Shown in pieces: positions 8,583 through 64,000 of a stretch of DNA of 64,000 bases. The notes under the pieces are model-generated. The model worked only from the letters and a program-made list of their open reading frames with translations. It was not told the origin of the DNA and ran no database searches. The first letter of the stretch is position 1, and the number at the start of each line of letters is the position of its first letter. This stretch comes from an uncultured Acidobacteriota bacterium (GTDB lineage Bacteria; Acidobacteriota; Thermoanaerobaculia; Thermoanaerobaculales; Sulfomarinibacteraceae). The stretch covers positions 135,959 to 199,958 of the forward strand of contig CAVQPK010000007.1 of the NCBI GenBank assembly GCA_963714745.1. The letters are read 5' to 3'. The position numbers were made by a program, and so were the translations under genes.

Positions 8583-10085
8583 CTAGAGGTTGGGGTTGCG
8601 CGCCATGGTCCGCAGACGACGGACCCGCTTGTCGCCGTCGAGCTCGGTGAGCCGCTCCGCAGCGCGCTCGTCGTCAGGGTCAGCGGTCAGTGCCAGCTGG
8701 AGGGCGCGACGCTCGCGGTCGACATTCCGGCGCCGGCGCCAGAAGGACGCCAGCTCGAGCCAGCCGTCGACCATGCCCGGGTCGAGCTCGAGCGCCTGCT
8801 TGAGCCGCGCCAGCGCCCGCTCCGACCACATCGGGTTGGCGAGCATCAGCCGCGCCAGCGTGAGCAGCGGCACCGGTTGCGGGTCGAGGTTGCATGCCGC
8901 CTCGAGCAGGGTGTAGGCGGTGTGGCGGTCGCCGGCGCGCAGCGCCTCCTCGGCCCGCCGCAGGTTGGCCCCGACGATCTCACGTCGTGCTATGTCCTGG
9001 CTCTGTGTCGCCGAGTCGCCTTCGCTCGTCGTGTCGACCCGGGGAACCGGGCGGCGGTCGGCGGGGCGAACCCGGTCGTATCGGACCCTCGACGATGGGT
9101 CGAACAGGGTCTGGTAGGCCATCCGCAGCTTTTCGGAGGCCTGCTCGAGAGCCTCGCCGAGATCGGCGAGGTGACCCTCGCGCGCCGCTCGCCCGGGGTC
9201 GAAGAACGCGCGCTGCCGCTCCCAAGCCTGCTCGATCGTGGTGTAGGACGAGCCGCGTGGAATGCCCAGCATCGCGTAGTGGTCGCCGCTCGGCGCCCGG
9301 GTGTGGAAGCTGACGATCGCCGCCCGCTCGGCCAGCTCGGAGTTGGACAGCCGTGCGCGCTCGGCGCGATTCCCGTTGATCTCGACCAGGGCGCCGCAGA
9401 GCACGAACGGCGCGACGAGGGCGCCCAGCCGCACGCGGTCGAGCTCGGTGTCTCGGATCACCTGGTCGAGGTCGGCTCCGCTGCCGAACGAGCCGAGCGC
9501 CCGCAGCTCCTCCTCGGTCGGGTCGAGGTCGCGGGCGATGTCTTCGGAGCTCCCGTTGAGACGCCACCTGCGGCCGGAGCTCATCAGCTGTGAGATCTCG
9601 CCGTTCTGGGGGAGCTCGCGCGCGGCCGCCAGGATGAGGCGGGCAGTGGCGCGGTCGGGCAGCTCGCCGCCGCCGGCCCGCCCGCCGGGATGGAACTCGA
9701 GGTGATCGCGCACCGCAGACGTGGCGCGGCGAACGATCGTCTTGGACAGAGCCTCGACCTCGTGGACGAGGGTCGGCCCGTCGATCAGATCGCGGTCGAG
9801 GAGAAGGCGGCCGAGCAGAACCGAAGGGTCGCCGGCCTGGGCCAGCAGCGCGAGGGCGACCTCCTCGGCACCGAGCCGGCCGCGTTGGGTCAACCACTCG
9901 CCGAGATGTTCGTCGTGACGATCGGAGCGGGTCGCCCGGATGAAGCCGGCCTCGAAGACCAGCTCCCGCCGGACGTCGGTCGAGACCACCGAGAGAGCGC
10001 CAGTGACCTCCTGGTCGCGCAGCTCCGCGAGGATCTTCGGCAGTGGCCGCTGGTCTTTGGGGGCGAAGTCGGGGAGCGAGGACAT
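8583..10085 (-). CDS. DUF4388 (PatA-N-like) / degenerate J-domain / TPR protein
   Basis: ORF 8583..10085(-). N-terminal ...VTGALSVVSTDVRRELVFEAGFIRATRSD...LGEWL... (DUF4388-like). A central J-like segment DHYAMLGIPRGSSYTTIEQAWERQRAFFDPGRA...AYQTLFDPSSRVRYDR. A TPR-like C-terminus. Confidence 0.75.
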   Translation of the reverse strand: MSSLPDFAPKDQRPLPKILAELRDQEVTGALSVVSTDVRRELVFEAGFIRATRSDRHDEHLGEWLTQRGRLGAEEVALALLAQAGDPSVLLGRLLLDRDLIDGPTLVHEVEALSKTIVRRATSAVRDHLEFHPGGRAGGGELPDRATARLILAAARELPQNGEISQLMSSGRRWRLNGSSEDIARDLDPTEEELRALGSFGSGADLDQVIRDTELDRVRLGALVAPFVLCGALVEINGNRAERARLSNSELAERAAIVSFHTRAPSGDHYAMLGIPRGSSYTTIEQAWERQRAFFDPGRAAREGHLADLGEALEQASEKLRMAYQTLFDPSSRVRYDRVRPADRRPVPRVDTTSEGDSATQSQDIARREIVGANLRRAEEALRAGDRHTAYTLLEAACNLDPQPVPLLTLARLMLANPMWSERALARLKQALELDPGMVDGWLELASFWRRRRNVDRERRALQLALTADPDDERAAERLTELDGDKRVRRLRTMARNPNL

Positions 10086-10226
10086 CGGGCGACTTCTCCC
10101 TTCAGGAATGCAGACCGAGTCTCGATTCTGGTTGGTACGACAACGGTGCGCCGGCGGGAATTCCCGCGAGCGCGGTGTATCGCCGACCGCAGCAGCTGTC
10201 TGTTGAAGGATGCGGGCTACACGCCG

Positions 10227-11399
10227 CTACAGCTCCCGCAGGGCCGAGGCCACCGGAAGGCGGGCCGCGCGCAGGGCCGGCAGCAGCCCCCCCACTGTGC
10301 CCATCAGCAGCGCGAAAGCGAACCCGATCGCGAGCAGCGAGGGGGTCACCCGGAACGCGAACGCGAGATGGGAGAAGGTCTGCCAGTTGATGGTGCCGGT
10401 GGTGAAGCCGTTGACCGGCAGCACCGCCAGGCAGCCGAGCACTCCGCCGGCGGCCGCGATCAACAACGATTCGAACAGGAAGGAGAGCACCACGCTGGCG
10501 CCGCCGAAGCCGAGCGCGCGCAGGGTGGCGATCTCCCGTGCCCGGGCGGCCACCGCCGAGTACATCGTATTGAGGGCCCCGAACACCGCCCCGATGCCCA
10601 TCACGATCGCGACCAGGAAGCCGAGGGTCATGATCAGTGCCGAGACCGCTCGCGACTGCTTGGCGTAGTACTCGCGCTCCCGGCTGGCCTGCACGGTCAG
10701 GCGGGGGTCGGCGGTGAGCCGGTCCTTGAAGGCGGGGAACAGGTCGGCGGTTCCGAGCCGCGCGGTGACCGACTGGAAGATGTTCTCCGGCCGCCTGAAT
10801 GCCTGGTTGAGCACCGCAGCGTCGCACCACAGCTCGGAGTCGAAGGCCGAGCCGCCGGCGTCGAGCACCCCGACCACGGTCCAGCTCTGGCCGCCGAAGT
10901 CGAGCCGCTGGCCGAGGCCGACGCCGCGGTAGATCGTGGCCGCGTTCTTTCCCACCACCACCTCTGCAGTGCCGGGGTTGAACTTCCGGCCCGCGACCAC
11001 CCTGACGCCCTCGCGCACGTCGAAGGTCCTCGACGACACGCCGCGAATCTGGACGTTGGCGTCGGTCCCGCTGGCGGCGAGGGGGAACGCGCCGATCACC
11101 ACCACCTCGGCGCTGACCAGCGGCGCCCCGTCGGCGGTCCGGGCCACCTCCGGCGCGTCGCCGATCACCTTGACCTGCTCCAGCGTCACCGCGCTGACCA
11201 TCTCCGAGTCGGCACCGGAGCGCAGCACGATCGCGTTGGCTGGAGACCCGGACGCCACCAGGGTGGCCTGGAAGCCGCGCGCCATCGACAGCATCGCCAC
11301 GAACACGCCGACCGTCCCGGCGATGCCGAGCACGGCGACGAGAGCAGCCGGCCACCGGACCATCACGCTGCGGGCGTTGTACGAGATCGGGATCGCCAT
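10227..11399 (-). CDS. ABC transporter permease, FtsX/MacB-type (permease 2)
   Basis: C-terminal 390 aa of ORF 10227..11957(-), from MAIPISYNARSVMVRW (ATG 11399-11397). One N-terminal TM helix, a large periplasmic domain, and a C-terminal FtsX 3-TM bundle (...REIATLRALGFGGASVV...). Confidence 0.85.
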   Translation of the reverse strand: MAIPISYNARSVMVRWPAALVAVLGIAGTVGVFVAMLSMARGFQATLVASGSPANAIVLRSGADSEMVSAVTLEQVKVIGDAPEVARTADGAPLVSAEVVVIGAFPLAASGTDANVQIRGVSSRTFDVREGVRVVAGRKFNPGTAEVVVGKNAATIYRGVGLGQRLDFGGQSWTVVGVLDAGGSAFDSELWCDAAVLNQAFRRPENIFQSVTARLGTADLFPAFKDRLTADPRLTVQASREREYYAKQSRAVSALIMTLGFLVAIVMGIGAVFGALNTMYSAVAARAREIATLRALGFGGASVVLSFLFESLLIAAAGGVLGCLAVLPVNGFTTGTINWQTFSHLAFAFRVTPSLLAIGFAFALLMGTVGGLLPALRAARLPVASALREL

Positions 11400-37247: not shown

Positions 37248-37424
37248 TCACTCCTGGGTCGCGGGCGGCTCGGGCGCGTACAGCCGCTCGACCCACTCCC
37301 GGAACCAGGGTGGGCGCGCGATCAGCAGGTAGGCCGCCCCGAGCGCCGTCAGCGGCAGCGCGAACAGGACCACGTCGACCGCGACCAGGGCGACGGCCAG
37401 CACGACTCGCTCCGAGGTGGTCAT
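37248..37424 (-). CDS. possible small membrane protein (58 aa) downstream of copA
   Basis: Below the ORF-track size cutoff. ATG 37424-37422 with GGAGGGAGGAG 7 nt upstream. MTTSERVVLAVALVAVDVVLFALPLTALGAAYLLIARPPWFREWVERLYAPEPPATQE, one or two TM helices, high GC3. Confidence 0.4.
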   Translation of the reverse strand: MTTSERVVLAVALVAVDVVLFALPLTALGAAYLLIARPPWFREWVERLYAPEPPATQE

Positions 37425-37441
37425 CTCTCGCTCCTCCCTCC

Positions 37442-37569
37442 GGTGCCGGGTGCAACACTACAGTAACTTCGTTTTCCCGAGGGTCGGCTTTCCGGTCGTT
37501 GCTGAAGTCGGTAAAGTCGCTCAATACAGGTCTCTTGCGCTATGTTGTTGTATTGTTGCACACGGCACC
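37442..37569. repeat. 128-bp MITE/REPIN-like element bounded by inverted REP-like 26-mers
   Basis: GGTGCCGGGTGCAACACTACAGTAAC (37442-37467) and GTTGTTGTATTGTTGCACACGGCACC (37544-37569). The arms match at 22 of 26 positions in inverted orientation. The same termini flank the RAYT-like gene at 57281-58351. Confidence 0.65.
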
Positions 37570-37623: not shown

Positions 37624-40113
37624 TCAGGGGCCGAGGCGGGCGCGCTTGAGGCGGAGGCTGTTGGACACCACCGAAACCGACGAGAAGGCCATCGCGAGGG
37701 CCGCGAAGGCGGGGTGGAGCATCCTCAGGCCGTCCGGTAGGGCATGGAACGGAGCCAGCACCCCCGCCGCCACCGGGATCAGGATGACGTTGTAGGCGAA
37801 AGCCCAGAACAGGTTCTGGCGGATGGTGCGTACCGTCGCCCGGCTGAGCTCGATCGCGGTCGGGATCAGCTTCAGGTCGCCCCGCATCAGGGTCACGTGG
37901 GCGGCCTGCATGGCGACGTCGGTGCCGCCGCCCATCGCGATCCCGACGTCAGCGCGGGCGAGGGCGGGGGCGTCGTTGACCCCGTCGCCGACCATCGCGA
38001 CCAGGCCCTCGGCGGAGCCCTGCAGTGCCTGCACGGCCGCCGCCTTGTCCTCGGGGAGCACGTCGGCCACGACCTCGTCGATGCCGACCTCCCTGGCCGC
38101 CGCCTCGGCAGCAGCGCGGTGGTCTCCGGTCAGCAGAACGGTCCTGAGGCCGAGGCCGTGCAGCATCCGCACCGCGTCGGCGGCGCCGCCCTTGACCGTA
38201 TCCGCGAGCCCGATCACGCCCAGGGCCACCCCGTCCCTCGCGACCCACACCGTGGTCCGGCCCTCCTGCTCGAGCCGCGAAGCCTGCTCGTCGAGGGGAG
38301 TCGGGTCGATGTCGTGGCGGGCCAGGTGGGCCCGTTTGCCGACCACGACCCGATGCTCGCCGAAGGTCGCGGCCACCCCCATCCCCGGCGTGGGCTCGAA
38401 TCGGTCCGCGCGGGCAACCGTCAGCCCGCGCTCGCGAGCCGAGTCCACTACCGCGCGGGCCAAGGGGTGCTCCGAGTCGAGCTCGGCCGCCGCCGCCAGT
38501 GCGAGCACCACCCCCTCCGGCGCCTCGCCGGCGGGAGCGCGGCAGTCCTCTGCGACCGCGATCTCGGCTACCCGCGGCCGTCCTTCGGTCACTGTTCCGG
38601 TCTTGTCGAGCACCACCACGCCGAGCTTCACGGCGCGCTCCAGGGCCTCGCTCGAGCGGTAGAGAATGCCGAGCCCCGCCCCGCGACCGGTGCCGACCAT
38701 GACCGCGGTCGGGGTGGCCAGGCCGAGCGCGCACGGGCAGGCGATCACCAGCACCGCCACCATCCGCATCAGCGCGGCGGTGAAGCCGGCGCCGACTCCC
38801 AGCCACCAGACCAGGAGGGTGGCCGCGGCGATCACGATCACGACCGGCACGAAGACTGCGGCGACCCGGTCGGCGAGCCGCTGGATCTCAGGCTTCGAGC
38901 CCTGGGCCTCGCGCACCAGGCGGACCACCTGGGCGAGCGCGGTGTCTGCACCCACCTTGGTCGCCTCGAAGCGCAGGACGCCGTCCGAGGTCACCGTCCC
39001 GGCGAGCACCGTGTCGCCCGCTGCCTTGGCGACTGGCACGCTCTCGCCGGTGAGCGCCGACTCGTCGACCGCGGCCCGGCCCGAGCTGACCACCCCGTCC
39101 ACTGGCACCCGCTCACCGGGCCGCACCACCACCACATCACCCGGGCTGACCTGCTCCACGCCGATGTCCTCGACCTGCCCGTCGCGCTCGATTCGGACTC
39201 TCTGCGGCGCAAGCGAAGCGAGCTCGCGGATGGCGTCGCCGGCGCGGCCCTTCGCCCGGTGCTCGAGCAGCTTGCCGACTTTGATCAGGGTCAGGATCAC
39301 CGCCGCGGTCTCGTAGAACACGTGCTCGCCGAGGGCGGTCGAGCCGAGCGTGAGCGCGACCGTCACCGGCAGGCTGGCGAGGTAGGCGGTGAGCGAGCCG
39401 AGGCTGACCAGCACGTCCATGTTCGCGGTCCGGTTGCGAAGCGCCTTCAAGGCCGCGACGTAGAAGTCCCGACCGGTGACCAGGAGCACCGGCGTGGCGA
39501 GGACGAGCAGCAGCCAGTTGACCCACGGGGCGTGGGACCAGACGCCGGCCAAGCCGAGGTCGCGGGCCATCGAGAGCGCGAACAGCGGGACCGTGAACGC
39601 CACCCCGACGCCGAGCGCGACCGCGTGGCGGCGGGCCTCGGCGCGATCCGCCGCGGCGACCTGCTCGGCCTCGTCCGCCCCGAGCGAGCCCGCCTCGTGC
39701 CGCACGCCGTACCCGGCTCGCTCGACCGCGGCGACCAGGTCGCGCCGGGTCGCGGCGCCCGGAACGTACTCGACGCGAGCCGTCTCGGCCGCGAAGTTGA
39801 CCGCCGCGGCGACCACCCCCGGGACCTTGCGCAGGAGAGTCCGTTCGACCGTCGCGGAGCAGTTGGCGCAGGTCATGCCGGTGATCTCGAGATCGGCGGC
39901 CGTGGTCGGCACCTCGTAGCCTGCGCCGCGCACCGCGGCCACCACGTCGGCGGCGGAGGCCTGACCCTCGAGCGCGACGGTGACGGTCTCAGCGGCGAAG
40001 TTGACACTCGCCTCCCTCACCCCGCCGAGGCGGCCGAGCACGCGTTCGATGGTGGCCGCGCAGTTGGCGCAGGTCATGCCGCGAACCGGCAGCGTGAGGC
40101 GCGCCGCGGCCAC
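37624..40113 (-). CDS. copA: copper-translocating P1B-type ATPase
   Basis: ORF 37624..40113(-). Two N-terminal HMA domains (GMTCANC twice), CPC motif ([11 protein letters not shown]), [15 protein letters not shown]. Confidence 0.95.
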
Positions 40114-41653: not shown

Positions 41654-41662
41654 CTTCCCTCC

Positions 41663-41690
41663 GGTGCCGTGTGCAGCAATACGATAACGC
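41663..41690. repeat. solo REP-like copy
   Basis: GGTGCCGTGTGCAGCAATACGATAACGC. It shares 24-25 of 28 positions with the copies at 57281 and 58351(rc), and has an internal GTGTGC...GCACAC stem. It abuts the RBS of the MTH1187-family gene. Confidence 0.55.
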
Positions 41691-44849: not shown

Positions 44850-44925
44850 GCCAACGTAGCTCAGTCGGTAGAGCAAGTGATTCGTAATCACTAGGTCGCC
44901 GGTTCAAGTCCGGCCGTTGGCTCCA
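44850..44925 (+). tRNA. tRNA-Thr (anticodon CGU)
   Basis: Cloverleaf read by eye. Acceptor GCCAACG/CGTTGGC, D-arm TAGCTCAGTCGGTAGAGCA, anticodon stem AGTGA/TCACT with loop TTCGTAA, T-arm GCCGGTTCAAGTCCGGC, encoded CCA. Confidence 0.93.
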
Positions 44926-53393: not shown

Positions 53394-56063
53394 TCAATGC
53401 CCGGCCGAGGTGCCTGGATGTGCCGGTCGGTGCGCGGCGAGTTCGAGCAGCTGCTGGAATCGTGGGTCGGCTCGCAGATCAGCGAGCCCTGGTGTGTTGA
53501 CGATCTGATCCAGGGCAAAACCGCGCTCGAGCACCTCGGCGAGCAGCTCCAGCGCCCGATCGCGATGGCCCGCGTCCTCGCAGATGTTGGCTGCGAAGAG
53601 CCTGGTGTCCAGGTCGTCGGGCGCGAGCTCGAGCGCTTGCTCCACCAGGGCGAGACCTTCGGCGGTGCGCCCGAGGGCGACCTCGCAGTCGGCCAGGTTG
53701 ATCAGGACCTCGGGATCGCGGGGGTTGACCCGCCGCTGCTCCTCGGCCAGCTCCGCGGCGCGGCGGTAGGCCGCCGGGGCCTTGGCCTCGAGGCCGGGCG
53801 CCCACAGGTAGGCCGAAGCGAGGTTTCGCCAGATGCGGTAGTCGGTGGCCTGGAGCTCGAGCGCCTGCTCGAACGCGCCGGCGGCGCCGGTGAAGTCGCC
53901 CTGTGAGTACCTGATGGTGGCCAGGTTCGAGTACACGCGATAGCTGGGCTCGATGGCGGCGGCGCGCCGGAACGCAGAAGCCGCCTCGTCGATCCTCCCC
54001 ATGGCGTAGTAGACGCCGCCGAGGTTGCTGAAGGCGCGAGCGCTCCACGGCGCGAGCTCCGTCACACGGACGAACGTACGCTCGGCCTCCTCCAACCGCC
54101 CGGTCCGGTAGTAGAAGACACCAAGCTGGTTGAAGCTGGCCCAGTACCCGGGGCGGGCGTCGATGGCCAGGCGGTAGGTGGCCTCGGCATCCGCCATGCG
54201 GCCCAACGATTCGTAGGTGGCGGCCAGACCACGCAGCGCCTCCGGGTCGTGCGGGCTCAGCGCCAGCGCGCGGCGAAAGGACTCCACCGCCTCTTCGGAC
54301 CTTCCGGTGCCGTCCAGCACCAGGCCGAGGGTCACCCATCCCGGGGCGAGCAGGTCGTTCAGCTCGACCGCTCGCCGCGATGCGCTCCGGGCGAGCTCCA
54401 TCGATGCCGCGTCCTGATTGAGCTTCCAGCGCCGCCAGCAGGCCTCGCCGAGGCCGGCGTAGGCGAGGGCATACTGCGGGTCCCGCTGCAGAGCCCCCTG
54501 AAACGAACCGACAGCCTGGTCGAGGCTCTCGCTGTCGGTGTAGTCCTGGAGGTGGGCGCGACCCTCCAGATAGAGACGATAGGCGTCGGCTTCCGAGGTG
54601 GTCCCGGCGCGGATGATCCGCTCCGCCTCGGGATTGAGCTCGATCTCGAGCATCCCGGCCACCCGTCGCACCAGCTCGTCCTGCATGTTCATGAGGTGGT
54701 CGACTGAGGAGTCGACGTCGATCGCGCGAAGCTGGCGTCCGGCGACGGCGTCGATCAGGTTCGCCGTCAGACGGACCGTAGGCCCCACCTTCTGGACACT
54801 GCCGGAGACCACGAGCGAGACGCCGAACCTGCGGTGGGCCGCAGCCGCGCTGGTGATGTCGGCTTCGCGGACCTCAGATGCGGGGACGACCGCCAGCGAT
54901 CCCCGGAACCCCTCGAGCTCGGTGAGCTTGCTGGTGAGGATCTCGGCCAGTCCGGCACCGATCAGTCGGCTGTCCTGGTCGCCTTCAGCGGTCGAAAAGG
55001 GGAGCACTGCGAGCGATCCCTGTCCGGGCGCCGGCGCGCCGCCAGGGATCTCTCCCGTTCGGCCGCGCATGAAGAGCAACCAGAGGAGCACCAATACCGC
55101 GACGACCGGCAGCGCGAGGACCCATGCGGGGGCTCTCCTGCGGCCTCGTGGAGGTGGTTCGACCACGGGGGTGGTGAGGTGGATGACCCGAGCTTCACCC
55201 GAGTCGGTGAGGATGCTCCGCAGGGCGAAGGCGAGGTCGCGCGCCGACTGGAACCTGTCCTCGGGCCGTTTCTCGAGGCACCTGTTGACCACGCGCTCGA
55301 GTGCCGCCGGGACGGCCGTGGCGAGCTGCGACAGCCGCGGCGGGTCGTCACGGGCGATGGCCGCCATGGTTTCGGCGGCGCTCTGCTCGTGGAATGCCCG
55401 CGTACCGGCGAGCATCTCGTAGAGAACGGTGCCCATCGAGAACAGATCGCTTCGGTGATCCGTCGGCTGCGAGCGGACCTGCTCCGGCGACATGTACCCT
55501 GCGGTGCCGAGGACCATCCCCGGATGCGTGTCGAGGGTCAGAGTGGGCAGGTTACCGCCAGTGGTGGGATCTTGGGACTCCTGCTGTCTCAGCTTGGCCA
55601 GCCCGAAGTCGAGGATCTTCACCGTACCGTCCGAGGTGATGAAGATGTTGTCGGGCTTGAGGTCGCGATGGATGACACTTCGCTCATGGGCGGCTGCGAG
55701 GCCGTCGGCGATCTGGATGGCGTACTCGATCACCTTCCCGGGCGGGAGGCGGCCGCCTTCGATGCGGTCGCGCAGTGTCTCGCCCTCGAGCAGCTCGGTG
55801 ACGATGAACGGCCGGTCGTCTTCGACTCCGGAGTAGTGGATCGCGAGGATGTTCGGGTGGGCGAGCTTGGCCACCGCCTTGGCCTCGCGGTCGAATCGCG
55901 CGAGGCGGTCGGGTCTCTGGGCGACCGAGTCCGGCATCACCTTCACCGCAACATCCCGGTCGAGGCGCTCGTCGTGGGCCCGGTACACTTCTCCCATCCC
56001 GCCCTCACCGAGCTTGGCGACGATGCGGTAGTGGCCGAGCGTCCGTCCGATGAGGTCACTCAT
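53394..56063 (-). CDS. Ser/Thr protein kinase with TM helix, periplasmic-type middle domain and C-terminal TPR array
   Basis: ORF 53394..56063(-). GEGGMGEVYRA, VAVK, HRDLKPDN, DFGLAK, GTAGYMSPE. TM WVLALPVVAVLVLLWLLF. At least 8 TPR-like units. Confidence 0.9.
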   Translation of the reverse strand: MSDLIGRTLGHYRIVAKLGEGGMGEVYRAHDERLDRDVAVKVMPDSVAQRPDRLARFDREAKAVAKLAHPNILAIHYSGVEDDRPFIVTELLEGETLRDRIEGGRLPPGKVIEYAIQIADGLAAAHERSVIHRDLKPDNIFITSDGTVKILDFGLAKLRQQESQDPTTGGNLPTLTLDTHPGMVLGTAGYMSPEQVRSQPTDHRSDLFSMGTVLYEMLAGTRAFHEQSAAETMAAIARDDPPRLSQLATAVPAALERVVNRCLEKRPEDRFQSARDLAFALRSILTDSGEARVIHLTTPVVEPPPRGRRRAPAWVLALPVVAVLVLLWLLFMRGRTGEIPGGAPAPGQGSLAVLPFSTAEGDQDSRLIGAGLAEILTSKLTELEGFRGSLAVVPASEVREADITSAAAAHRRFGVSLVVSGSVQKVGPTVRLTANLIDAVAGRQLRAIDVDSSVDHLMNMQDELVRRVAGMLEIELNPEAERIIRAGTTSEADAYRLYLEGRAHLQDYTDSESLDQAVGSFQGALQRDPQYALAYAGLGEACWRRWKLNQDAASMELARSASRRAVELNDLLAPGWVTLGLVLDGTGRSEEAVESFRRALALSPHDPEALRGLAATYESLGRMADAEATYRLAIDARPGYWASFNQLGVFYYRTGRLEEAERTFVRVTELAPWSARAFSNLGGVYYAMGRIDEAASAFRRAAAIEPSYRVYSNLATIRYSQGDFTGAAGAFEQALELQATDYRIWRNLASAYLWAPGLEAKAPAAYRRAAELAEEQRRVNPRDPEVLINLADCEVALGRTAEGLALVEQALELAPDDLDTRLFAANICEDAGHRDRALELLAEVLERGFALDQIVNTPGLADLRADPRFQQLLELAAHRPAHPGTSAGH

Positions 56064-56072
56064 GGGCGCTGA

Positions 56073-57272
56073 TCACGGTGGACCGATGGTATCGCGGGAT
56101 TGCCGCGGACGCGCCGCGGTCAGCGGCTGGAGTTCGCCGGGGTAGACTGCGGTGAAGGTGCCGTCGACGATCTCGAGCGCGGACGGCCGGCCCCGAGCGG
56201 GCCAGTGCTCCATCAGGGTGTCGATCACGAACAGACGACCGTTGAATCGTTCGAGGATCCGGCCATCCCTACGGGGGATGTGGCCGACCACCATGCGCTG
56301 CACCGCGAAGCTGGCCAGCAGCTCGGAGAGCTCCGCTGCGTCGGCGGTCTCGTCCCAGAACGACGGCGCGCCGTTCCACAGAGGTCCCGCGGGATCGGCG
56401 ATGAGCCAGGACTGCCATCCCACCAGGTCGCGCATCGGACCGACCTGCAGCGCGCGTCGACGCTCGTTCGCGCTGGGCTTCCGGCCGAGCCGCTCGGCGA
56501 AGCGGATCTCGTTCTCGACCACGGTGTTCATCAGGTGGATCGACGAGGTTGGTTGGATCAGGCCGAGGTCGGCCAGGTGGCGTCGCACCCGGTCGAAGGT
56601 GGCGAGCTCCTCCCGCACCCGGCGGTTGATCTCCTCGAGCCGCGTCCCCTTCATGGTCGGGCCGAGCCCGCCGTGGACGAAGACCGTGTCTCCGAGGAGC
56701 ACGACCGCGGGCCGCTGGCGCAGCCACCGGCCGTACTCGCCGGTCGGTCCGAACGCCTCGAGGTACTCGACCTTGCCGAGGGGATGGGCCTCGAGCCAGT
56801 GCCGCTCGAGCGCGCGGTCAACCGGGGGAGGAGAGGCGCCGAGGTAGCGCGCCTGTGCTTTGAGGAACCGCAGGTACTCCTCGTAGGCGTCCCGCCTGGC
56901 AGCCTCCGAACGGGCGTCCACGAATGCGTCAAAGCTGCGGGGGTCGACCTCGCGGAGCACGCCGAGGAGGTCGTTGACCTCGTGGTTGCCGAGCAGAACG
57001 ACAACACGGCCCCCGGCCTGCGCGGCCTCTCCCTCGAGGCGGATGAGCAGGTCGAGGACCTCGCGCAGGCGGGGCGCCCGGTCGACGATGTCGCCCATCT
57101 GGACCAGGGTCGTCGCACCGCCGGTCCAGCGCAGGTTCTCGTCGGCCAGGCCGGTCTCCCGCAGGATCGTCGTGAGAGCCCCGACGTTTCCATGCAGGTC
57201 CCCGACCGCCACGATGCGGTCGCCGGCGCCGGCCGAGGCCGCGACCAGCGCAACCCCTATCGCGGCAGTCAC
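56073..57272 (-). CDS. PPP-family metallophosphoesterase (probable Ser/Thr protein phosphatase) with signal peptide
   Basis: Inside ORF 56073..58106(-), start taken at GTG 57272 (TTG 57275 is an alternative). (M)TAAIGVALVAASAGAG, then the GDLHG / GDIVDRA / GNHE triad. Confidence 0.75.
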   Translation of the reverse strand: MTAAIGVALVAASAGAGDRIVAVGDLHGNVGALTTILRETGLADENLRWTGGATTLVQMGDIVDRAPRLREVLDLLIRLEGEAAQAGGRVVVLLGNHEVNDLLGVLREVDPRSFDAFVDARSEAARRDAYEEYLRFLKAQARYLGASPPPVDRALERHWLEAHPLGKVEYLEAFGPTGEYGRWLRQRPAVVLLGDTVFVHGGLGPTMKGTRLEEINRRVREELATFDRVRRHLADLGLIQPTSSIHLMNTVVENEIRFAERLGRKPSANERRRALQVGPMRDLVGWQSWLIADPAGPLWNGAPSFWDETADAAELSELLASFAVQRMVVGHIPRRDGRILERFNGRLFVIDTLMEHWPARGRPSALEIVDGTFTAVYPGELQPLTAARPRQSRDTIGPP

Positions 57273-57280
57273 CAACCACT

Positions 57281-58351
57281 GGTGCCGTGTGCAACAATCC
57301 GACAACACGCTCAGGATCCCACCGTCAGCTGGGTCCGCCCGCCGAGATCGCCGCGTCGACCCGATCGAGCTCGGCTCGCAGCCCGAGGTCGTCGCTTCTC
57401 GCCTCGGCAACGCGGCGCGCCGCATAGCCGAGACTGCCCTCGTGCTTGCCGAGCAGAAGGGCGAGCGCACGCAGCCGTTGACCGTGGCGCTCGACGGCGA
57501 GCAGCGCGACCACACCCCGGGCACGGGCGGTTTCGGGATCGCGGTGGCGGCCGGCCAGTTGCTCGACGTCGAGACCGAGCGCGGCGGCCGCCCGAGCGAG
57601 AAACTCGGCGGGCTCGAGGCGCGGCCGTTCCGGTGCGGTCGTTCTCCCCAGGGCGTCGACGAACGGCCCGCCGCCGGCCGGCTCGAGCTGGGGGTCCGTC
57701 TCGGCGGCGCCCCGCCACCAGGGCAACCTCCCGGGGATGAGGTCGACCCACGCGGCGTCGCGCACCTCGCCGAGTGTCCGGCGGTACGCACGAACGGCCG
57801 ACGAGCGCCGTCCGCCCCACAGCAGCAGCGCCTGGTCGCGGTCGGCGAGCCCTTCGCCGGCTCGCCCGAGCAGCTCGCGGTGACCGCTGAGGCTCCAATC
57901 TGCGGGGTCCGCGACGATGCCGGCGGCCACCGGGTTGAGGTGGATGGAGGCGACCAGTCGCCTGAGGTGGTTGTCACCCTGCACGAGCTTGCTGCGGTAG
58001 CGGCCCTGCCAGAGGGGGCCCGTGAGCTGGCGGCGGTGGTTGAAGGCCTTCGCGGAGCGACCTTGGAGCGAGGCCATGGTGCGCCACAGCAGGACGTCCC
58101 CGGCACGGAGCGCGAGGTGGTAGTGGTTCGACATCAGACACCAGGCGAAGAGGGTGAAGCCGTCGCGCGCCTTCAACTCGCGGAGCAGGTCGACGAAGGC
58201 GCTGGCCTCGGTGGGGTCTGAGAAGACCGGTTCGCCGCGCGCGACGCGTGCGTAGACGTGGAAGACGGCTCCTGGAGCGAAGACCCGTGGCGGTCGAGGC
58301 ATCGGCGGCTCCTTACGGGCCGAGTGTTATTGGATTATTGCACACGGCACC
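57281..58351. mobile_element. RAYT-like transposase gene bracketed by inverted REP-like sequences
   Basis: GGTGCCGTGTGCAACAATCCGACAACACGC (57281-57310) and GTGTTATTGGATTATTGCACACGGCACC (58324-58351) are inverted copies of the same 28-mer. They enclose the single Y1/HUH gene 57325..58302(-). Confidence 0.6.
57325..58302 (-). CDS. IS200-like Y1/HUH transposase family protein (REP-associated, RAYT-like) with C-terminal DnaA-C-like HTH
   Basis: ORF 57325..58302(-), AAGGAG upstream. ...FHVYARVARGEPVF...LFAWCLMSNHYHLAL (HUH = HYH)...GPLWQGRYRSKLV...LVASIHLNPVAAGIV...WSLSGH.... C-terminus ...ARGVVALLAVERHGQRLRALALLLGKHEGSLGYAARRV. Confidence 0.75.
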   Translation of the reverse strand: MPRPPRVFAPGAVFHVYARVARGEPVFSDPTEASAFVDLLRELKARDGFTLFAWCLMSNHYHLALRAGDVLLWRTMASLQGRSAKAFNHRRQLTGPLWQGRYRSKLVQGDNHLRRLVASIHLNPVAAGIVADPADWSLSGHRELLGRAGEGLADRDQALLLWGGRRSSAVRAYRRTLGEVRDAAWVDLIPGRLPWWRGAAETDPQLEPAGGGPFVDALGRTTAPERPRLEPAEFLARAAAALGLDVEQLAGRHRDPETARARGVVALLAVERHGQRLRALALLLGKHEGSLGYAARRVAEARSDDLGLRAELDRVDAAISAGGPS

Positions 58352-61097
58352 GGGCGAGGAGGGAGCGGGCGGCGAAGGTGTCCGGGTGGTCTGCGCCGAG
58401 CAGGGTGGTGCGCCGGTCGACGACCCTCGCGGCGAGCGCCTCGGCCTCCTCGAGGCGACCCAGCCCGGCCAGCGCCCGGGCGCGCTCGAGCTCGGCATGC
58501 AGCACCACCGGATGTTCGGGCCCCAGCCCCTCGCTCCCGATCCGGACGGCCTCCTCGCTGAGCTCGAGCGCCTCCTCGGAGCGGCCCTGGAGGGTCCGTA
58601 TTCGGGCCATCAGGGTCAGGCTGCCGAGGGTGTCCGGGTGGGCCTCGCCGCGGACCCGCTGCTGGGGCTCGAGGATCTCCGTCAGCAGCGCCTCGGCGGC
58701 CTCGAGCTCGCCCTGCTCGACCCGCAGCTCCGCCAGGCCGGCCATGGTCCTCAGGGTGTTCCCGTCCTCGGGACCGAAGCTCTCGCGCTGCAGCTTCAGC
58801 GTGGAGAGGTAGAGGGCTTCGCCCTCCTCGAGGCGCCCCTGATCGCGGAGCACGTCGGCCAACAGGTTCCTCGAGAAGAGCCAGCTCGACCTGTCACCCG
58901 GGAGATTCTCTCGAATCGTGATCGCCCGCCGGAGCTGCTCCTCGGCCTCGGGGTAGCGAGCCTGCTCCGCGAGGGTCACGCCCAGGTTGTGCACCGACAT
59001 TGCGGTTTCCCCATGGTTCTCGCCCAGCACCCGGGTCTTGGCGCCGACGACCTCCCGGAGCAGGGACTCGGCCTGAGCGTAGCGGCCGAGCTCGAGGTAG
59101 GCGGAGGCGAGGTTGCTGCCGAGGGTGAGGGTGTGGGGGTGGTCCTCGCCCAGGAGTCGTGTGGCGACCGCCAGGGCCTGCTCGAAGAGCGCCGCCGCCT
59201 CGGCGTACCGCCCCGCGTTGAACAGCGTCGCCGCGAGCCCATTGAGCGACTTGAGCGTGTCCGGGTGGTCCTCGCCCAGTACCCGGCGGCGGATCTCGAG
59301 GGTGTGGCGGTCGATCGCCTCGACCTCGTCGTATCGGCCCTCGGCCCACAGCAGGTCGGCAAGCAGGTTCAGGGCCTTGAGTGTGGACGGGTGGTCCTCG
59401 CCGAGGGTCTCGGCCCGGAGCTCGAGCACTCTGCGCAGGATCGGCTCGGCTTCGTCGAAGAGCCCGAGTCGGGTGTAGAGCACGGCGAGGTCGGCGGCGG
59501 CGTCCAGAGCCTCGGGATTCCGAGCCTCGAGGCCTCCGCGGAGCTCGACGGCACGCTCGAGGTGCTCTTGCGCCTCGGGGTAGCGGCCGAGTGAGACATA
59601 GGTGTTGCCGATCGTCAGCCGAACGGCCGCTTCGACCTCGGGTTGCGCGGCCAGCTCGCCGCTGTCGGCGATCCTCCCCGCAGCCTGCTCGAGCACGTCG
59701 GCGACGGTGACCTCGCGCCCCTGGGCCTTCATCGGGTCGACCGACGACAGCAGCTCGCCGAGGAAGCCGGAGACCGCCACCGCCTTGGCCGTCTCGCGCT
59801 GCGCCGTGGCCCGTGCACGCTCCGCCTCGCTGCGCAGCGCCCGCTCGCGGAGGAAGCCTCCGATGATGACCGCGGCCACGAGACCGGCGGCCAGCAGGAC
59901 GCGGCGATGGCGGCGGGCGAACTTGCCCGCCCGGTAGCCGAAGGTACTCTTCCTGGCCAGGACCGGCAGCCCCTCCAGGTAGCGCTCGATGTCCTGGCCG
60001 AGCTGCTCGGCCGAGGCGTAGCGCGCCTCGGGCTCGGGTCGCAGGGCCTTGAGGCAGATGGTGTCGAGGTCGCCGGCGATCCGGCGCCAGTCCCCCCGCG
60101 CGGGCGCCGGTGCGCCGGGCTCGGCGGTCTCCGTGGGCGGTATCCCGCCCCGCCGCTGCCGGGAGCGGAGTCGCGAGCTCGGGGTCGCGGGCAGGTCCCG
60201 CGTCGGCGAGCCCGGATCGGGCGTGGGTCGCTCGTGAGGCCGGCTGCCGGTGAGCAGCTCGTAGAGCACCACGCCGAGGGCGTAGACGTCGGTGGCGGTG
60301 GTCACCGGCTCGCCCGCGAGCTGCTCGGGAGCGGCGTACTCGGGCGTCATGAGCTGCTCCCCGGTGCGGGTCAGCCCGGCGCCTTCCGGGACCTCGTCGA
60401 GCAGCTTGGCGATGCCAAAGTCGAGCAGCTTCACCTGCCCGTCGCGGTCGACGAGGATGTTGCCGGGTTTGAGGTCGCGGTGCACGATCAGGTTGCGGTG
60501 CAGGTAACTCACGGCCCCGATGACTGCCAGGAAGAGCCGGAGCACGTCGTCGACGGCAAGGCCCTGGGCCGCGCAGTGGCGGGTGATCGGCTGGCCCTCG
60601 ACGTGCTCCATGACGAAATAGGGCCGGCCCTCGTCGGTGACGCCGCCGTCCAGCAGCCGGGCGATGTGGGGGTGGCCGAGGCGGGCCAGGATCTGCCGCT
60701 CGGCGAGGAAGCGCGCCCTCAGCTGCGGCGTCTCCATGTCGAGGTGGAGCAGCTTGAGGGCGACCTGCTGGTCGAAGGCCCCGTCGACGCGCTCGGCCCG
60801 GTAGACCGCGCCCATGCCGCCGTGGCCGACGGCCTCCAGGGTGCGGTAGGGTCCGATCTGCATCCTCGGGCGGGCTGCGCTGTCGAGCTCGAGCGGCGCC
60901 GCGGCGGCGATCTCGCCGGTCAGCCCGTCGAAGAACCTCGAGGCCTCCTCGTGCACTCCGAGCAGCTCCTCCAGCTCGCGGCGCAGCCCGAGGTCGTCCC
61001 CGCAGGCCTCGTCGAGGAAGGCGCTGCGGGCCTCGGCCGGTCGCTCGAGCACCTCGGCGAGCAGCTCCTCGAGCCGGTCGAGGCGTTGGTCGCTCAT
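58335..61097 (-). CDS. Ser/Thr protein kinase with TM helix and long TPR (TPR_12-like) array
   Basis: ORF 58335..61148(-), start taken at MSDQRLDRLEELL (ATG 61097). GHGGMGAVYRA, VALK, HRDLKPGN, DFGIAK. TM VLLAAGLVAAVIIGGFL. About 10 TPR units (...LNLLADLLWAEGRYDEVEAIDRH...). Confidence 0.9.
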   Translation of the reverse strand: MSDQRLDRLEELLAEVLERPAEARSAFLDEACGDDLGLRRELEELLGVHEEASRFFDGLTGEIAAAAPLELDSAARPRMQIGPYRTLEAVGHGGMGAVYRAERVDGAFDQQVALKLLHLDMETPQLRARFLAERQILARLGHPHIARLLDGGVTDEGRPYFVMEHVEGQPITRHCAAQGLAVDDVLRLFLAVIGAVSYLHRNLIVHRDLKPGNILVDRDGQVKLLDFGIAKLLDEVPEGAGLTRTGEQLMTPEYAAPEQLAGEPVTTATDVYALGVVLYELLTGSRPHERPTPDPGSPTRDLPATPSSRLRSRQRRGGIPPTETAEPGAPAPARGDWRRIAGDLDTICLKALRPEPEARYASAEQLGQDIERYLEGLPVLARKSTFGYRAGKFARRHRRVLLAAGLVAAVIIGGFLRERALRSEAERARATAQRETAKAVAVSGFLGELLSSVDPMKAQGREVTVADVLEQAAGRIADSGELAAQPEVEAAVRLTIGNTYVSLGRYPEAQEHLERAVELRGGLEARNPEALDAAADLAVLYTRLGLFDEAEPILRRVLELRAETLGEDHPSTLKALNLLADLLWAEGRYDEVEAIDRHTLEIRRRVLGEDHPDTLKSLNGLAATLFNAGRYAEAAALFEQALAVATRLLGEDHPHTLTLGSNLASAYLELGRYAQAESLLREVVGAKTRVLGENHGETAMSVHNLGVTLAEQARYPEAEEQLRRAITIRENLPGDRSSWLFSRNLLADVLRDQGRLEEGEALYLSTLKLQRESFGPEDGNTLRTMAGLAELRVEQGELEAAEALLTEILEPQQRVRGEAHPDTLGSLTLMARIRTLQGRSEEALELSEEAVRIGSEGLGPEHPVVLHAELERARALAGLGRLEEAEALAARVVDRRTTLLGADHPDTFAARSLLARCRVQ

Positions 61098-61111
61098 CAC
61101 GCTCCCCGCGA

Positions 61112-61694
61112 TCAGGTCGGGGCGGTCTGAAGCTCCCGGTACAGCCACGATCGGGCCAGGCTCCAGCCGCGCTTGATTGTTGCAGGTGAAACCTCGAGCG
61201 CCTCGGCGGTCTCATCGACCGAGAGGCCCCCGAAGCACCGGCACTCGACGATGCGGGCGAGGCGGGGCTGCCGCTCGGTCGAGGCGCTCGAGCGCCTCGT
61301 CGAGGGCCAGGAGCTCCTCGGAGCGCTCGGCGGAGACCAGCATCGACTCCTCGAGCGCGGCCGGGACCCGGCCTCCGCCGCGCTTCTGACGCCCCAGCCA
61401 ACGGGCGTTGTCGATCAGGATGCTGCGCATCGCTTTGGAGGCGAGAGCATAGAAGTGCCGGCGGTTGGCGAAGTCGACGTTGACCTGCCCCTGCAGCTTG
61501 AGGTAGGCCTCGTGCACCAGGCTGGTCGTGCCCGGGGCGCGCTGGTCGCTCCACCGGTAGCGGTTGGCCCGCGCCAGCTCCTTGAGCTCGCCGTAGATCA
61601 GCGGCATGAGCTGCTCGAGCACGGCGCTTCGGTTGACATCCGGCTGGTCGCCGAGCTGCGCCAGAAGGCGCGTGATCTCGCCGCTGCCGTTCAT
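61112..61694 (-). pseudogene. ECF sigma factor of the kinase-associated type (TIGR02999-like), one frame break as assembled
   Basis: ATG 61694. MNGSGEITRLLAQLGDQPD...LMPLIYGELKELARANR...TSLVHEAYLKL.... Region 4 is only read after removing one base near 61277 (ALERLD | [54 protein letters not shown]). The stop at 61112 is 14 nt before the kinase ATG. Confidence 0.8.
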
Positions 61695-62020
61695 CGCGCG
61701 GGCCGGACCTGGTGGGCCCGAAGGTCGGGATTCGCGGTCAGCCGTGACCGGACATCCAGAACGGCGATGTTCCTGAGATGGGGGCCTTTCATGGTGACCA
61801 TCCCGATCGTATTGAGATCGTAGCACGCGGCGTGGGACAGGCGGGGAGGGCGCCGGGCCTTTCCGCAGCAGCGTCCGCGGCTGCGTGCGACCGCGAGGCC
61901 TCGCGCCCGGTGATCCCTGGAAGGCCAGGACGTCGTCTGGATGGGAAAGGGCCAACCTCCGAGGGCGTGATGGGTTGCGGTTCTCGGAACGCCGGCCGCA
62001 GAGCTGAGGAGGAGGTCGCC

Positions 62021-64000
62021 ATGCAACACACACACAGTTCGCTATCGCGCGGGCTCGTCGTAACGATCGCAGTCGCGGCGGCCGTTCTCTTGACCGGATG
62101 TAAGGGCGAGGAGCTTCGAAGATGGCTCGACCTCTGGTCCCCAGCCAATGTGAACTGTGTCCGGCCGGGTTCGGCGACCCTCGCCGCGTCCGCGGGAGAG
62201 GTGCTCTACCTCGCGGCCTCGGCCCACGTGACCGGCGCCCTCGGCACCGACTGGCGGTCGGACGTGGAGCTGCACAATCTCTCGGAGGAGAACGCGCTGG
62301 TGACCCTCTGGCTGCTGGTGCACGGCGCCGACAACAGCTCCCCCGCGTCCGCTCAGATCACCGTCCCGGCGGGCTCGAGCGTGCGCCTGGCCGACGTGCT
62401 GGCCGGCCAGTTCAGCCTCGACGGCCAGGCGGCGCTGATGCTGTCGGTGGGCTCGGGGAGGATCCTGGCCACCAGCCGGACCTACAACCTGCTCGCCGCC
62501 GGCAACCCGCTGGGCCTGCCCGGAGGCTCGACCTTCGGCCAGTTCATTCCGGCGCTGGAGCGGAGCGGGGCGATCGCCTTCGGCGAGGAAGGCCGGCTGA
62601 TCCAGCTCTCCCACTCGACCGCCACCTCGGGCGGCTTCCGCACCAACCTGGGGCTGGTCAACATCACCTCGTCGTCGCTCGACGTGGAGGTGGAGCTCTA
62701 CACCGCCAGCGGCACGCCGCTCGGGACCGTTTCCGTGACCCTGCCGCCCTTCGGCTACCAGCAGCTCAACCGGGTCTTCGCGAGCGTCACCGCGGGCGAC
62801 GTCGACGACGGCTACGCGGTGGTGCGGACCACGACGGCGGGCGGCAGCTTCTTCGCCTACGCCTCGGTGGTCGACAACCTGACCGGCGACCCGATCGCGA
62901 TCACGGCCGAGAAGGTGCCGGTGGAGGAGCCGGCGGGCAGGGGCGAGCCGGTCTACCTGGTCGCGGCGGCCCACCTGAGCGGGGTCGGGGGCACCAACTG
63001 GCGCACCGACGCCGAGATCCACTGCTGGGGGGACGTGACGGCGTCGTTCAGGATCGAGCTGCTCGAGCACGGGGTCGACAACAGCACGCCTGGCTACTCC
63101 GCGAGCTACACCCTGGAGGCCGGCCGCAGCCTGCGGCTCGAGGACCTGCTGGACAGCGAGTTCGGCTTCTCCGGGGCGGCGGCGGTGCGGGTCACGACCT
63201 ACGCGGGCCACGTGCTGGTCACCAGCCGGACCTACAACCTGCTCGGCGAGGGCAACGACGCCGGGCTGCCGGCGGGTGCGACCTTCGGGCAGTACATCCC
63301 GGGCGTGACCATGGCCGACGCGATCCGGGAGGGCGAGGAGGGGCGGCTGATCCAGCTCTCCCACACCCCCGGCGGTGCGAGCGGCTTCCGCACCAACCTG
63401 GTGCTGGTCAACGCGAGCCCGAAGCAGATCGCGGTCGAGGTCGACCTGTACTCAAGCGACGGCGCCCTGCTGGGGACCGTGAACCGGACCCTGCTGGCCC
63501 ACGAGTACCGCCAGCTCAACGGGGTCTTCGAGCAGGTGACGGGATCGACCGTCGCCGACGGCTATGCGGTGGTGCGCACGACGACCTCGGAGGGCGCGGT
63601 CTTCGCCCTGGCCTCGGTGGTCGACAACCTGACCGGCGACCCGGTCGGGCTCGGTGCGGCGGTGGTGCTCTCGGCCGGAGCCGAGGGGTTGATGGGCGAA
63701 GTCGGGGCCATCCTCGAGGTGATGGGGGGCACCACCCTCGAGAGTGCGGTCGACGGCATGCAAACGGTGGGGCTCGAAGGCATGCTCGACGGAGTGGTGA
63801 GCGCGCAGCCGGAGGTCGCCCGGCGGACGCCCGAGGGCTACGTGCTCGACTACGGCGAGGGCACCGTGCGGCCGGACGGGTCGGTGTGGTCGGGGGCGAC
63901 CGCCGTCGACGCCTCGGGCCTGTCGGTCACGAGCGACGGGATCTCGGGCACGATGACCATCACCAACGACGGGTTCGCGATTGACGGCGAGCCGTCCCCG
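62021..64000 (+). CDS. lipoprotein with two tandem copies of an unassigned ~230-aa domain (partial, continues beyond window end)
   Basis: Not in the ORF track (no stop in the window). ATG 62021 with GAGGAGGAGG upstream. Lipobox LLTGC. The frame is open for 660 codons. Repeats at aa 61-297 and 310-545 share ...GT(D/N)WR(S/T)D...TSRTYNLL...TFGQ(F/Y)IP...EGRLIQLSH...GFRTNL(G/V)LVN...DGYAVVRTTT...ASVVDNLTGDP.... Confidence 0.75.
   Translation, partial: MQHTHSSLSRGLVVTIAVAAAVLLTGCKGEELRRWLDLWSPANVNCVRPGSATLAASAGEVLYLAASAHVTGALGTDWRSDVELHNLSEENALVTLWLLVHGADNSSPASAQITVPAGSSVRLADVLAGQFSLDGQAALMLSVGSGRILATSRTYNLLAAGNPLGLPGGSTFGQFIPALERSGAIAFGEEGRLIQLSHSTATSGGFRTNLGLVNITSSSLDVEVELYTASGTPLGTVSVTLPPFGYQQLNRVFASVTAGDVDDGYAVVRTTTAGGSFFAYASVVDNLTGDPIAITAEKVPVEEPAGRGEPVYLVAAAHLSGVGGTNWRTDAEIHCWGDVTASFRIELLEHGVDNSTPGYSASYTLEAGRSLRLEDLLDSEFGFSGAAAVRVTTYAGHVLVTSRTYNLLGEGNDAGLPAGATFGQYIPGVTMADAIREGEEGRLIQLSHTPGGASGFRTNLVLVNASPKQIAVEVDLYSSDGALLGTVNRTLLAHEYRQLNGVFEQVTGSTVADGYAVVRTTTSEGAVFALASVVDNLTGDPVGLGAAVVLSAGAEGLMGEVGAILEVMGGTTLESAVDGMQTVGLEGMLDGVVSAQPEVARRTPEGYVLDYGEGTVRPDGSVWSGATAVDASGLSVTSDGISGTMTITNDGFAIDGEPSP

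Follow-up and report, generated by a model that had tools for sequence, protein, structure and literature searches.

Positions 57281-58351 of the DNA stretch analysed here (64 kb, hereafter the window) very probably constitute a TIRtron, that is, one TIRYT gene (encoding a transposase like the REP-associated tyrosine transposases, RAYTs) bounded by terminal inverted repeats (TIRs) of 28 bp; this copy is probably inactive, and an inverted doublet and a solo copy of the same repeat elsewhere in the window would be relics or derivatives of its repeat family. An earlier note on the same DNA had described a RAYT-like Y1/HUH transposase gene bracketed by inverted REP-like 28-mers (REP, repetitive extragenic palindrome), in the REP/RAYT arrangement of gamma-proteobacteria. 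The gene and its type were borne out; the repeats are of another kind, and the arrangement is the one published as TIRtron/TIRYT, in which RAYT-like genes are flanked by long TIRs, not by REPs (Di Nocera, De Gregorio & Rocco 2013, BMC Genomics 14:522, PMC3733652).

The 28-mer family starts with GGTGCCGTGTGCA. The plus-strand arm of the unit (57281-57308, GGTGCCGTGTGCAACAATCCGACAACAC) and its minus-strand counterpart (58324-58351, GGTGCCGTGTGCAATAATCCAATAACAC) differ at 3/28 positions, 25/28 being complementary. The minus-strand arm carries one mismatch to the consensus of the earlier note, whose positions for both arms stand except for the end of the first (57310), since the 28-nt repeat stops at 57308. 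The three further copies that it had listed are also present (37442, degenerate; 37542-37569, minus strand; 41663), and chance predicts none: four copies were matched at up to 3 mismatches versus none expected from 100 dinucleotide-preserving shuffles. No others were found in the 64 kb even when 8 substitutions were allowed, giving a total of five. The four good copies agree at each of their first 13 nt, and variation falls on 7 of the 15 positions further in (Fisher p = 0.007). As single-stranded DNA, single 28-mers fold no better than their shuffles (-2.4 and -1.4 kcal/mol, z +0.49 and +0.21), and the tetranucleotides GTAG and CGTC occur in none of the five copies on either strand. The 28-mers are terminal inverted repeats and not REPs, and, with neither a hairpin nor a GTAG/CGTC tag, the arrangement is not a gamma-proteobacterial REPtron.

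Two of the additional copies form the inverted doublet. The stop of a P-type ATPase gene (37624) flanks it on one side and the start of a 58-aa open reading frame (ORF; 37424) on the other. Its plus-strand arm (37442-37469) is degenerate, with 6 mismatches to the copy-derived consensus, and its minus-strand arm (37542-37569) has 1 mismatch; together the two arms and their spacer fold into a long hairpin (z -3.5 and -4.2), as no other repeat arrangement there does. No partner above background was found for the solo copy at 41663. As part of the best explanation, the doublet and the solo copy would be non-autonomous relics or derivatives of the repeat family of the unit. Derivation of the doublet from the window unit by internal deletion, as a miniature inverted-repeat transposable element (MITE), was rejected, its spacer being unrelated to the interior of the unit (score 18 vs a mean of 18.8 for shuffles). 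No match to the pattern GGTGCCGTGTGCANNAATNCNANAAC was found in genome and metagenome contig collections, neither of which includes the source genome.

The transposase and its catalytic position

The sole ORF between the arms, described earlier as a single Y1_Tnp gene, encodes 325 aa and matches Pfam Y1_Tnp above the cut-off (E 9.8e-8, residues 14-110), and NCBIfam REP_Tyr_transpos at 80.1 bits against a cut-off of 80 (residues 5-139). A family profile of 25 homologues, compared with the PDB, matched E. coli TnpA-REP (4er8, E 6e-6, residues 5-144), whereas ISDra2 TnpA of the IS200/IS605 family reached only E ~0.6 and IS608 was likewise marginal. The structure 4er8 is also the top Foldseek match of the AlphaFold (AF2) model (TM 0.71; model pLDDT 82, pTM 0.78), so that the protein is nearer to TnpA-REP than to IS200/IS605 TnpA, as the RAYT-type assignment had it. 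The HUH motif is N59-H60-Y61-H62 (encoded at 58117-58128) and WQGRY occupies residues 98-102.

The DnaA-C-like tail noticed earlier is weak by single sequence (E 0.05) and clear with the family profile, which matches DnaA domain IV (3pvp, E 1.9e-6, residues 228-323; 1j1v, E 5.7e-5). In the model, a disordered linker (184-203) precedes the tail helices (231-321, pLDDT 81-94), whose Foldseek comparison with 3pvp gave TM 0.84-0.88 and a root-mean-square deviation of 1.6-1.7 Å; several homologues carry precomputed PF08299 or PF13384 matches. By profiles and model the tail is thus real, and the protein is a RAYT-like Y1/HUH domain fused to a helix-turn-helix (HTH) domain like DnaA domain IV. Residues ~228-323 share the fold of 3PVP and 1J1V, but the DnaA signature DHTTV is not conserved in the window family, the window protein reading HEGSLGY there. 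R262, invariant in the TIRYT family, aligns with the arginine of the DnaA basic loop. DnaA boxes in the TIRs were considered and rejected as a family property: the window TIR matches at 8/9 positions (TRTTGCACA vs TTWTNCACA), but across 54 TIRs DnaA-box-like 9-mers with at most one mismatch reached 5.6% vs 3.2% in shuffles, which is no enrichment.

The 90%-identity cluster of the window protein has one member from one contig, so no near-identical duplicate of the gene is on record and it appears to be single-copy. In a plasmid collection only distant matches were found, to the N-terminal domain at no more than 40% identity and annotated 'transposase'.

The family motif Y-I-H-L-N-P reads S119-I-H-L-N-P in the window protein, and a single A-to-C change separates its codon 119 (TCC) from TAC. 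In the profile alignment the S119 column, the Y of the Y-x3-NP motif, corresponds to Y115 of E. coli TnpA-REP, which Messing et al. (2012, PMC3479197) identified as the tyrosine that acts in catalysis alongside N119 and the HUH motif. Tyrosine occupies this position in 119/119 other homologues, and only two of the 61 columns with at least 90% conservation differ in the window protein, Y14F and Y119S. As read, the window copy thus lacks the tyrosine nucleophile of an active HUH/Y1 transposase and, with serine in its place, has most likely lost the ability to transpose, barring a sequencing error. The earlier note was silent on S119. Separately, a motif search showed one other non-tyrosine homologue, at locus L031 (gene 10001-11002, HIHLNP), and the genes at L029, L046 and L066 are pseudogenes with 11-13 in-frame stops.

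Table 1 Features of the TIRtron unit, its repeat family and its surroundings, in window coordinates.
Feature	Position	Strand	Remarks
Upstream TIR	58324..58351	-	GGTGCCGTGTGCAATAATCCAATAACAC; outer end 58351, 49 nt 5' of the transposase ATG; no hairpin alone
Downstream TIR	57281..57308	+	GGTGCCGTGTGCAACAATCCGACAACAC; outer end 57281; starts 17 nt past the transposase stop codon
Inverted TIR doublet, REPIN/MITE-like	37442..37569	.	outer ends outward; 72-nt spacer
Solo TIR	41663..41690	+	2 mismatches; a thiamine-binding-protein gene (-) starts (ATG 41653) 9 nt from the outer end
TIRYT gene	57325..58302	-	325 aa + stop; sole ORF between the arms; ATG 58302 preceded by AAGGAG
Predicted N-terminal Y1/HUH (TnpA-REP-like) domain	57763..58302	-	residues ~1-180; Pfam, NCBIfam, 4er8 profile, Foldseek
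Predicted C-terminal DnaA-domain-IV-like HTH domain	57328..57630	-	residues ~225-325; profile, model helices, Foldseek
Codon 119	57946..57948	-	TCC (Ser) at the catalytic-tyrosine position; sequence, alignments
Ser/Thr kinase (Pkinase) + TPR gene	58335..61148	-	3' end runs into the upstream TIR
Metallophos/PPP-like phosphatase gene	56073..57308	-	GDLHG, GDIVDR, GNHE; annotated 5' end in the downstream TIR
Second Pkinase + TPR gene	53394..56063	-	context
Extracytoplasmic function (ECF) sigma gene (PF07638 type)	61212..61790	-	context

Gene-repeat association and probable mobility in relatives

A protein search recovered several hundred relatives of ~320-345 aa at 42-56% identity, many of them named RayT by the Joint Genome Institute (JGI), and among 1.84 billion cluster representatives, all of them scanned, 138 proteins reached E <=1e-30 and 8148 reached E <=1e-10. 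A relative is encoded in 374 stretches of GTDB species representatives; the locus comparison covers the best 78 of these, of which 76 could be tested for flanking repeats. These loci come nearly all from metagenome-assembled genomes (MAGs) of Acidobacteriota (Thermoanaerobaculia, Holophagae, Sulfomarinibacteraceae), in which several divergent paralogues frequently share a genome. Inverted repeats of their own (score of at least 15, arms of 25-35 bp) flank 62 of the 76 genes compared to 1 of 117 control segments, and the outer TIR ends lie 42-136 nt (mode 60) 5' of the start codon and 9-64 nt 3' of the stop. The possibility that the motif is the operator of an unrelated regulator, which the earlier note had named as refuting its reading, is contradicted by this family-wide association.

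The arms are anchored on GT[GA]CC: the terminus (A)AAG-GTRCC-AGG is followed by yAC and then by a variable inner part, in which short direct sub-repeats are found in 31% of cases vs 6% in shuffles. In many arms the terminus forms a 5-bp mini-palindrome (GGTGC-CAG-GCACC or GGTAC-CAG-GTACC), its position 3 co-varying with position 9 (A with T in 30/31 arms), although all five pairs are formed in only 39 of 108 arms. The inner part varies with the protein: protein distance correlates with inner-TIR distance (Spearman 0.29; Mantel 0/2000), proteins at least 70% identical sharing the TIR and those below 50% having unrelated inner TIRs. The nearest relative with DNA available (L083, 53% identity) has the TIRs GTGCCAGGTACCATAATGCAATAATGC and GTGCCAGATACAACAATGCAATAGTC, which share the inner motif CAAYAATGCAATA (CAAYAAT.C.A) with the window; on this common motif, the GGTGCC-GTG terminus of the window is a diverged form of GGTGCC-AGG.

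Just beyond the outer end of many TIRs, a tandem of one to three repeats of the terminal ~10-13 nt (GGYACC and a few flanking bases) is found, as in GGCACCAGAACTTGGCACCAGAACTT and GGTACCTGTTTGGTACCTGTTTGGTACC (sites at L063 ~8034 and ~19636; L058 3600; L054 11011; L045 11030; L009 10217 and 15281; L017 120-300). A GGYAC in the same orientation lies within 40 nt outside 65 of 227 TIR sites, most frequently at 5-9 nt; for random 40-mers the share is 8%. Such tandem termini, which might stem from cleavage and rejoining or reflect a preferred target, were not seen at the window copies.

Whole TIR-gene-TIR units are repeated within relatives: three times at L020 (98.3-98.6% identity), three times at L009 (95-97%) and twice at L075 (96%), with the ORF intact in all but one of these copies. 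The flanks are unrelated in L009 and L075, and two of the three L020 copies share flank stretches of 68-77 nt. No target-site duplication (k of at least 4, any boundary offset) was found in ~65 units. DDE elements normally leave such duplications, so their absence fits HUH rather than DDE chemistry. Derivatives were also found: L063 holds a 321-bp internal-deletion derivative that keeps the gene start, as well as two 82-bp doublets, one being the reverse complement of the other even in the spacer. Across 1.22 Mb of relatives, 231 TIR sites include 66 full units, 8 doublets and 83 solos. Given the multi-copy units without target duplications, together with the deletion derivatives, doublets and solos, the TIRtron family looks mobile; the literature states no evidence of TIRYT movement.

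As observations on the L020 neighbourhood, a hairpin-rich stretch of 68 nt (...AACGCCGAAATGTGCACTGGGCGTT) precedes two of its three TIRtron copies (8385-8452 and 9870-9936), and an IS200/IS605-type tnpA ORF (7835-8278) directly adjoins one of them, which suggests nested mobile elements or a shared target.

For the family we infer which domain meets which part of the DNA, where cleavage occurs and that one strand is involved. The C-terminal HTH domain would bind the variable, subfamily-specific inner part of the TIR, and the HUH/Y1 domain would nick and rejoin one strand at the conserved terminus (GGTRCC, usually GGTRCCAGG and often a 5-bp mini-palindrome); whole units or TIR pairs would in this way be moved with no target-site duplication.

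Genomic context and competing explanations

The unit is co-directional with the cluster around it (ECF sigma, kinase + TPR, unit, phosphatase, kinase + TPR), and both neighbouring genes reach into its repeats. The upstream TIR holds the last five codons and the TAA stop (58335-58337) of the kinase gene, which ends ...CRVQ-TAA; the phosphatase of the databases (411 aa, P0121) starts at a GTG (57306-57308) at the inner end of the downstream TIR, which encodes its MLSDCCTRHQ, and its N-terminus is shorter than those of its orthologues and unlike them. Removing 57281-58351 in silico makes the kinase frame continue directly into the phosphatase frame. The closest phosphatase orthologues (75, 64 and 60% identity) lie in unrelated neighbourhoods without kinases, so the kinase/phosphatase cluster (53394-62033) seems specific to the source lineage and an interrupted operon is no more than a possibility. 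Of the insertion in a kinase/phosphatase cassette claimed earlier, the flanking kinase and phosphatase genes hold, and the intact operon is hypothetical. The GC content of the unit (0.70-0.77) is like that of its flanks, so that composition does not point to a recent acquisition. Annotations should avoid the label REP/RAYT for such units, and gene callers extend neighbouring genes into TIRs.

Around the other copies, CCCTCC on the plus strand (GGAGGG on the minus strand) directly precedes 37442 and 41663 (37425-37441 and 41654-41662), and on the minus strand a Shine-Dalgarno sequence and an ATG (37424 and 41653) stand right past the outer ends of these two TIRs. An orientation bias of TIRs toward gene starts is statistically not meaningful in the window and absent in relatives. 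The 58-aa ORF (37248-37424, minus strand), downstream of the heavy-metal P-type ATPase gene (37624-40113, minus strand), has a hydrophobic core (MTTSERVVLAVALVAVDVVLFALPLTALGAAYLLIARPPWF...), a strong Shine-Dalgarno sequence and no Pfam match. The only Rfam family match in the window is a tRNA gene (44850-44922, plus strand, 74 bits).

Four other explanations were weighed. In a classical REPtron, the 28-mers would be high-copy hairpin REPs, spread as REPINs (REP doublets forming hairpins) by a single-copy domesticated RAYT. The REP_Tyr_transpos match just at its cut-off, the JGI name RayT, the seemingly single-copy gene and the recurrence of the flanking inverted repeat nearby, once as a hairpin-folding doublet, speak for this account, which is nevertheless unlikely: the single 28-mers are unfolded (z ~0) and untagged, only five copies lie in 64 kb, and in relatives the whole gene-plus-repeat unit is multi-copy, as in an insertion sequence (IS). 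Moreover, the motif signature with a C-terminal HTH is that of subclass 2.1/Group 1, in which no REPs were found (PMC6006769) and 16-mer counts are modest, ~12 (PMC5581495). Somewhat less probable again is a domesticated regulator, in which a real and selected loss of the tyrosine would have left a non-cutting TIR-binding protein with the dispersed TIRs as its operators. It would account for the loss of the nucleophile alone (59/61 highly conserved positions, the HUH motif and the HTH being intact), for outer TIR ends directly adjoining the start or Shine-Dalgarno sequence of the thiamine-binding gene, the 58-aa membrane ORF and the phosphatase, and for the contrast between 13 invariant outer and 7/15 variable inner nucleotides. 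However, the orientation evidence has no statistical weight, coming from three loci of which two are symmetric; at 78 solo TIRs of relatives ORF starts are found at 24% of outer ends, 26% of inner ends and 36% of random positions; no sigma-70-like promoter was found in or beside the TIRs; and S119 is more simply a recent point mutation or a sequencing error. If true, a bacterial transposase and its repeats would here have been exapted into a small regulon. The related idea of the TIR as a promoter or ribosome-binding-site donor was rejected as a family property, there being neither an enrichment of ORF starts at outer ends nor a sigma-70 consensus.

Very improbable is a 28-mer that flanks the gene by accident, as a promoter or operator of an unrelated regulator or as the MITE TIR of a DDE transposase. 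The repeats do stand in short intergenic spaces near gene starts, but the 62/76 homologues with inverted repeats of their own at the same distances from the gene already contradict an accidental association, the repeat sequence tracks the protein, target duplications are absent and no promoter consensus was found. The least probable reading is an ordinary IS200/IS605-type insertion sequence with subterminal hairpins recognised by a dimeric TnpA. Its anatomy is already contradicted by ends that are 28-bp inverted repeats, not subterminal hairpins; the Y1/HUH fold is the same and an IS200-type tnpA stands beside one L020 unit, but the window protein is about twice as long, carries an HTH domain, and has Y-x3-NP (class 2) instead of Y-x3-Q (class 1), and its family profile matches TnpA-REP far better (E 6e-6 vs ~0.6 for ISDra2 and IS608).

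Several points weigh against the TIRtron reading itself. The terminus of the window TIRs is GGTGCCGTG, not the GGTGCCAGG of the family, and the published TIRYT motif GGGGWSAS is absent both from the window TIR (GGTGCC) and from the family consensus (A)AAGGTRCCAGG; this motif is, however, not strictly defining, because it is reported for the majority of TIRs only, the others being unrelated (PMC3733652). The 28-mer copy count covers the 64-kb window. Co-divergence of gene and TIR is also expected from simple co-inheritance and is therefore no proof of recognition, and the sparse literature that uses the term TIRYT holds no biochemistry on any of them. The change from tyrosine to serine could be a base-calling or assembly error of the MAG. 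Finally, the comparison with related genomes lacking the insertion, as proposed in the earlier note, recovered no empty site at the loci of the closest phosphatase orthologues, and insertion at this locus is thus only inferred.

Among RAYT-like groups, that of the TIRYTs (RAYT Group 1, subclass 2.1) is the largest, and no member of it has been studied experimentally. The main value of the present comparison lies in family-level regularities that can guide first experiments on this class: the family pattern gives concrete substrates and candidate active proteins (e.g. those of L020 and L009) for tests of how an HUH-DnaA-type fusion deals with inverted-repeat ends.

Comparison with known systems

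The IS200/IS605 elements (IS608, ISDra2) have in common with the window family the Y1/HUH fold, the lack of target-site duplication and, presumably, single-strand chemistry; they differ in their subterminal hairpins without TIRs and in a dimeric TnpA of ~130-150 aa with Y-x3-Q and no DNA-binding tail. E. coli TnpA-REP with its REPs and bacterial interspersed mosaic elements (4ER8; Messing et al. 2012, PMC3479197) is the best structural and profile match of the N-terminal domain, and the HUH motif, the Y-x3-NP helix and inverted cognate repeats flanking the gene are found in both. The E. coli protein has 165 aa and no HTH domain, unlike the window protein, and its REPs are imperfect palindromes with a 5' GTAG guide and hundreds of copies, whereas the 28-mers are non-palindromic. 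The hairpin-folding inverted doublets of the Pseudomonas REPIN-RAYT system (Bertels & Rainey 2011, PMC3116915) resemble 37442-37569 and the 82-bp doublets of L063. The RAYTs of REPIN systems (Groups 2 and 3) are, however, inherited vertically as single-copy genes and accompany tens to hundreds of REPINs, while here units are duplicated in some genomes and repeat numbers appear modest.

Closer to the window unit is TnpA-Y1 subclass 2.1, in which 20 of 26 TIRYTs were placed (Quentin, Siguier, Chandler & Fichant 2018, PMC6006769) and which corresponds to RAYT Group 1 of Bertels; its members show the motifs NH[YF]H, W[EQ] and Y[IV]HLNP, a C-terminal domain like Bac_DnaA_C, HTH_23 or HTH_28, and no REPs nearby (PMC6006769). 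Of the true RAYT groups, Group 1 most resembles insertion sequences: its duplicates amount to 6.3%, and its flanking 16-mers occur ~12 times (Bertels, Gallie & Rainey 2017, PMC5581495). By motif signature and C-terminal domain, the window protein fits subclass 2.1.2 of this group: it has NHYH, WQ and SIHLNP, deviating at the tyrosine (in the window protein only), and a Bac_DnaA_C/HTH_23-like extension. Its length differs (~325 aa vs a median of 238 aa). Few divergent copies per genome, with occasional near-identical duplicates, are found in subclass 2.1.2 and in the relatives alike, the latter adding 2-3 near-identical whole units without target duplications and deletion derivatives.

The window unit fits the published description of TIRtrons point by point, with the exceptions of GGGGWSAS and the tyrosine. 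That description includes TIR families with singles, dimers and clusters and a distinct group of TIRYTs in Acidobacteria (PMC3733652); the hosts here are MAGs of the Thermoanaerobaculia, Holophagae and Sulfomarinibacteraceae type, and the window copy is without the catalytic tyrosine. The RAYT-like gene between long non-GTAG TIRs is found again in the window, the divergent TIRYT genes of one genome, each with a TIR of its own, recur in the relatives, and the moderately abundant singles, dimers and clusters of TIRs reported for TIRtrons (PMC3733652) are likewise seen here.

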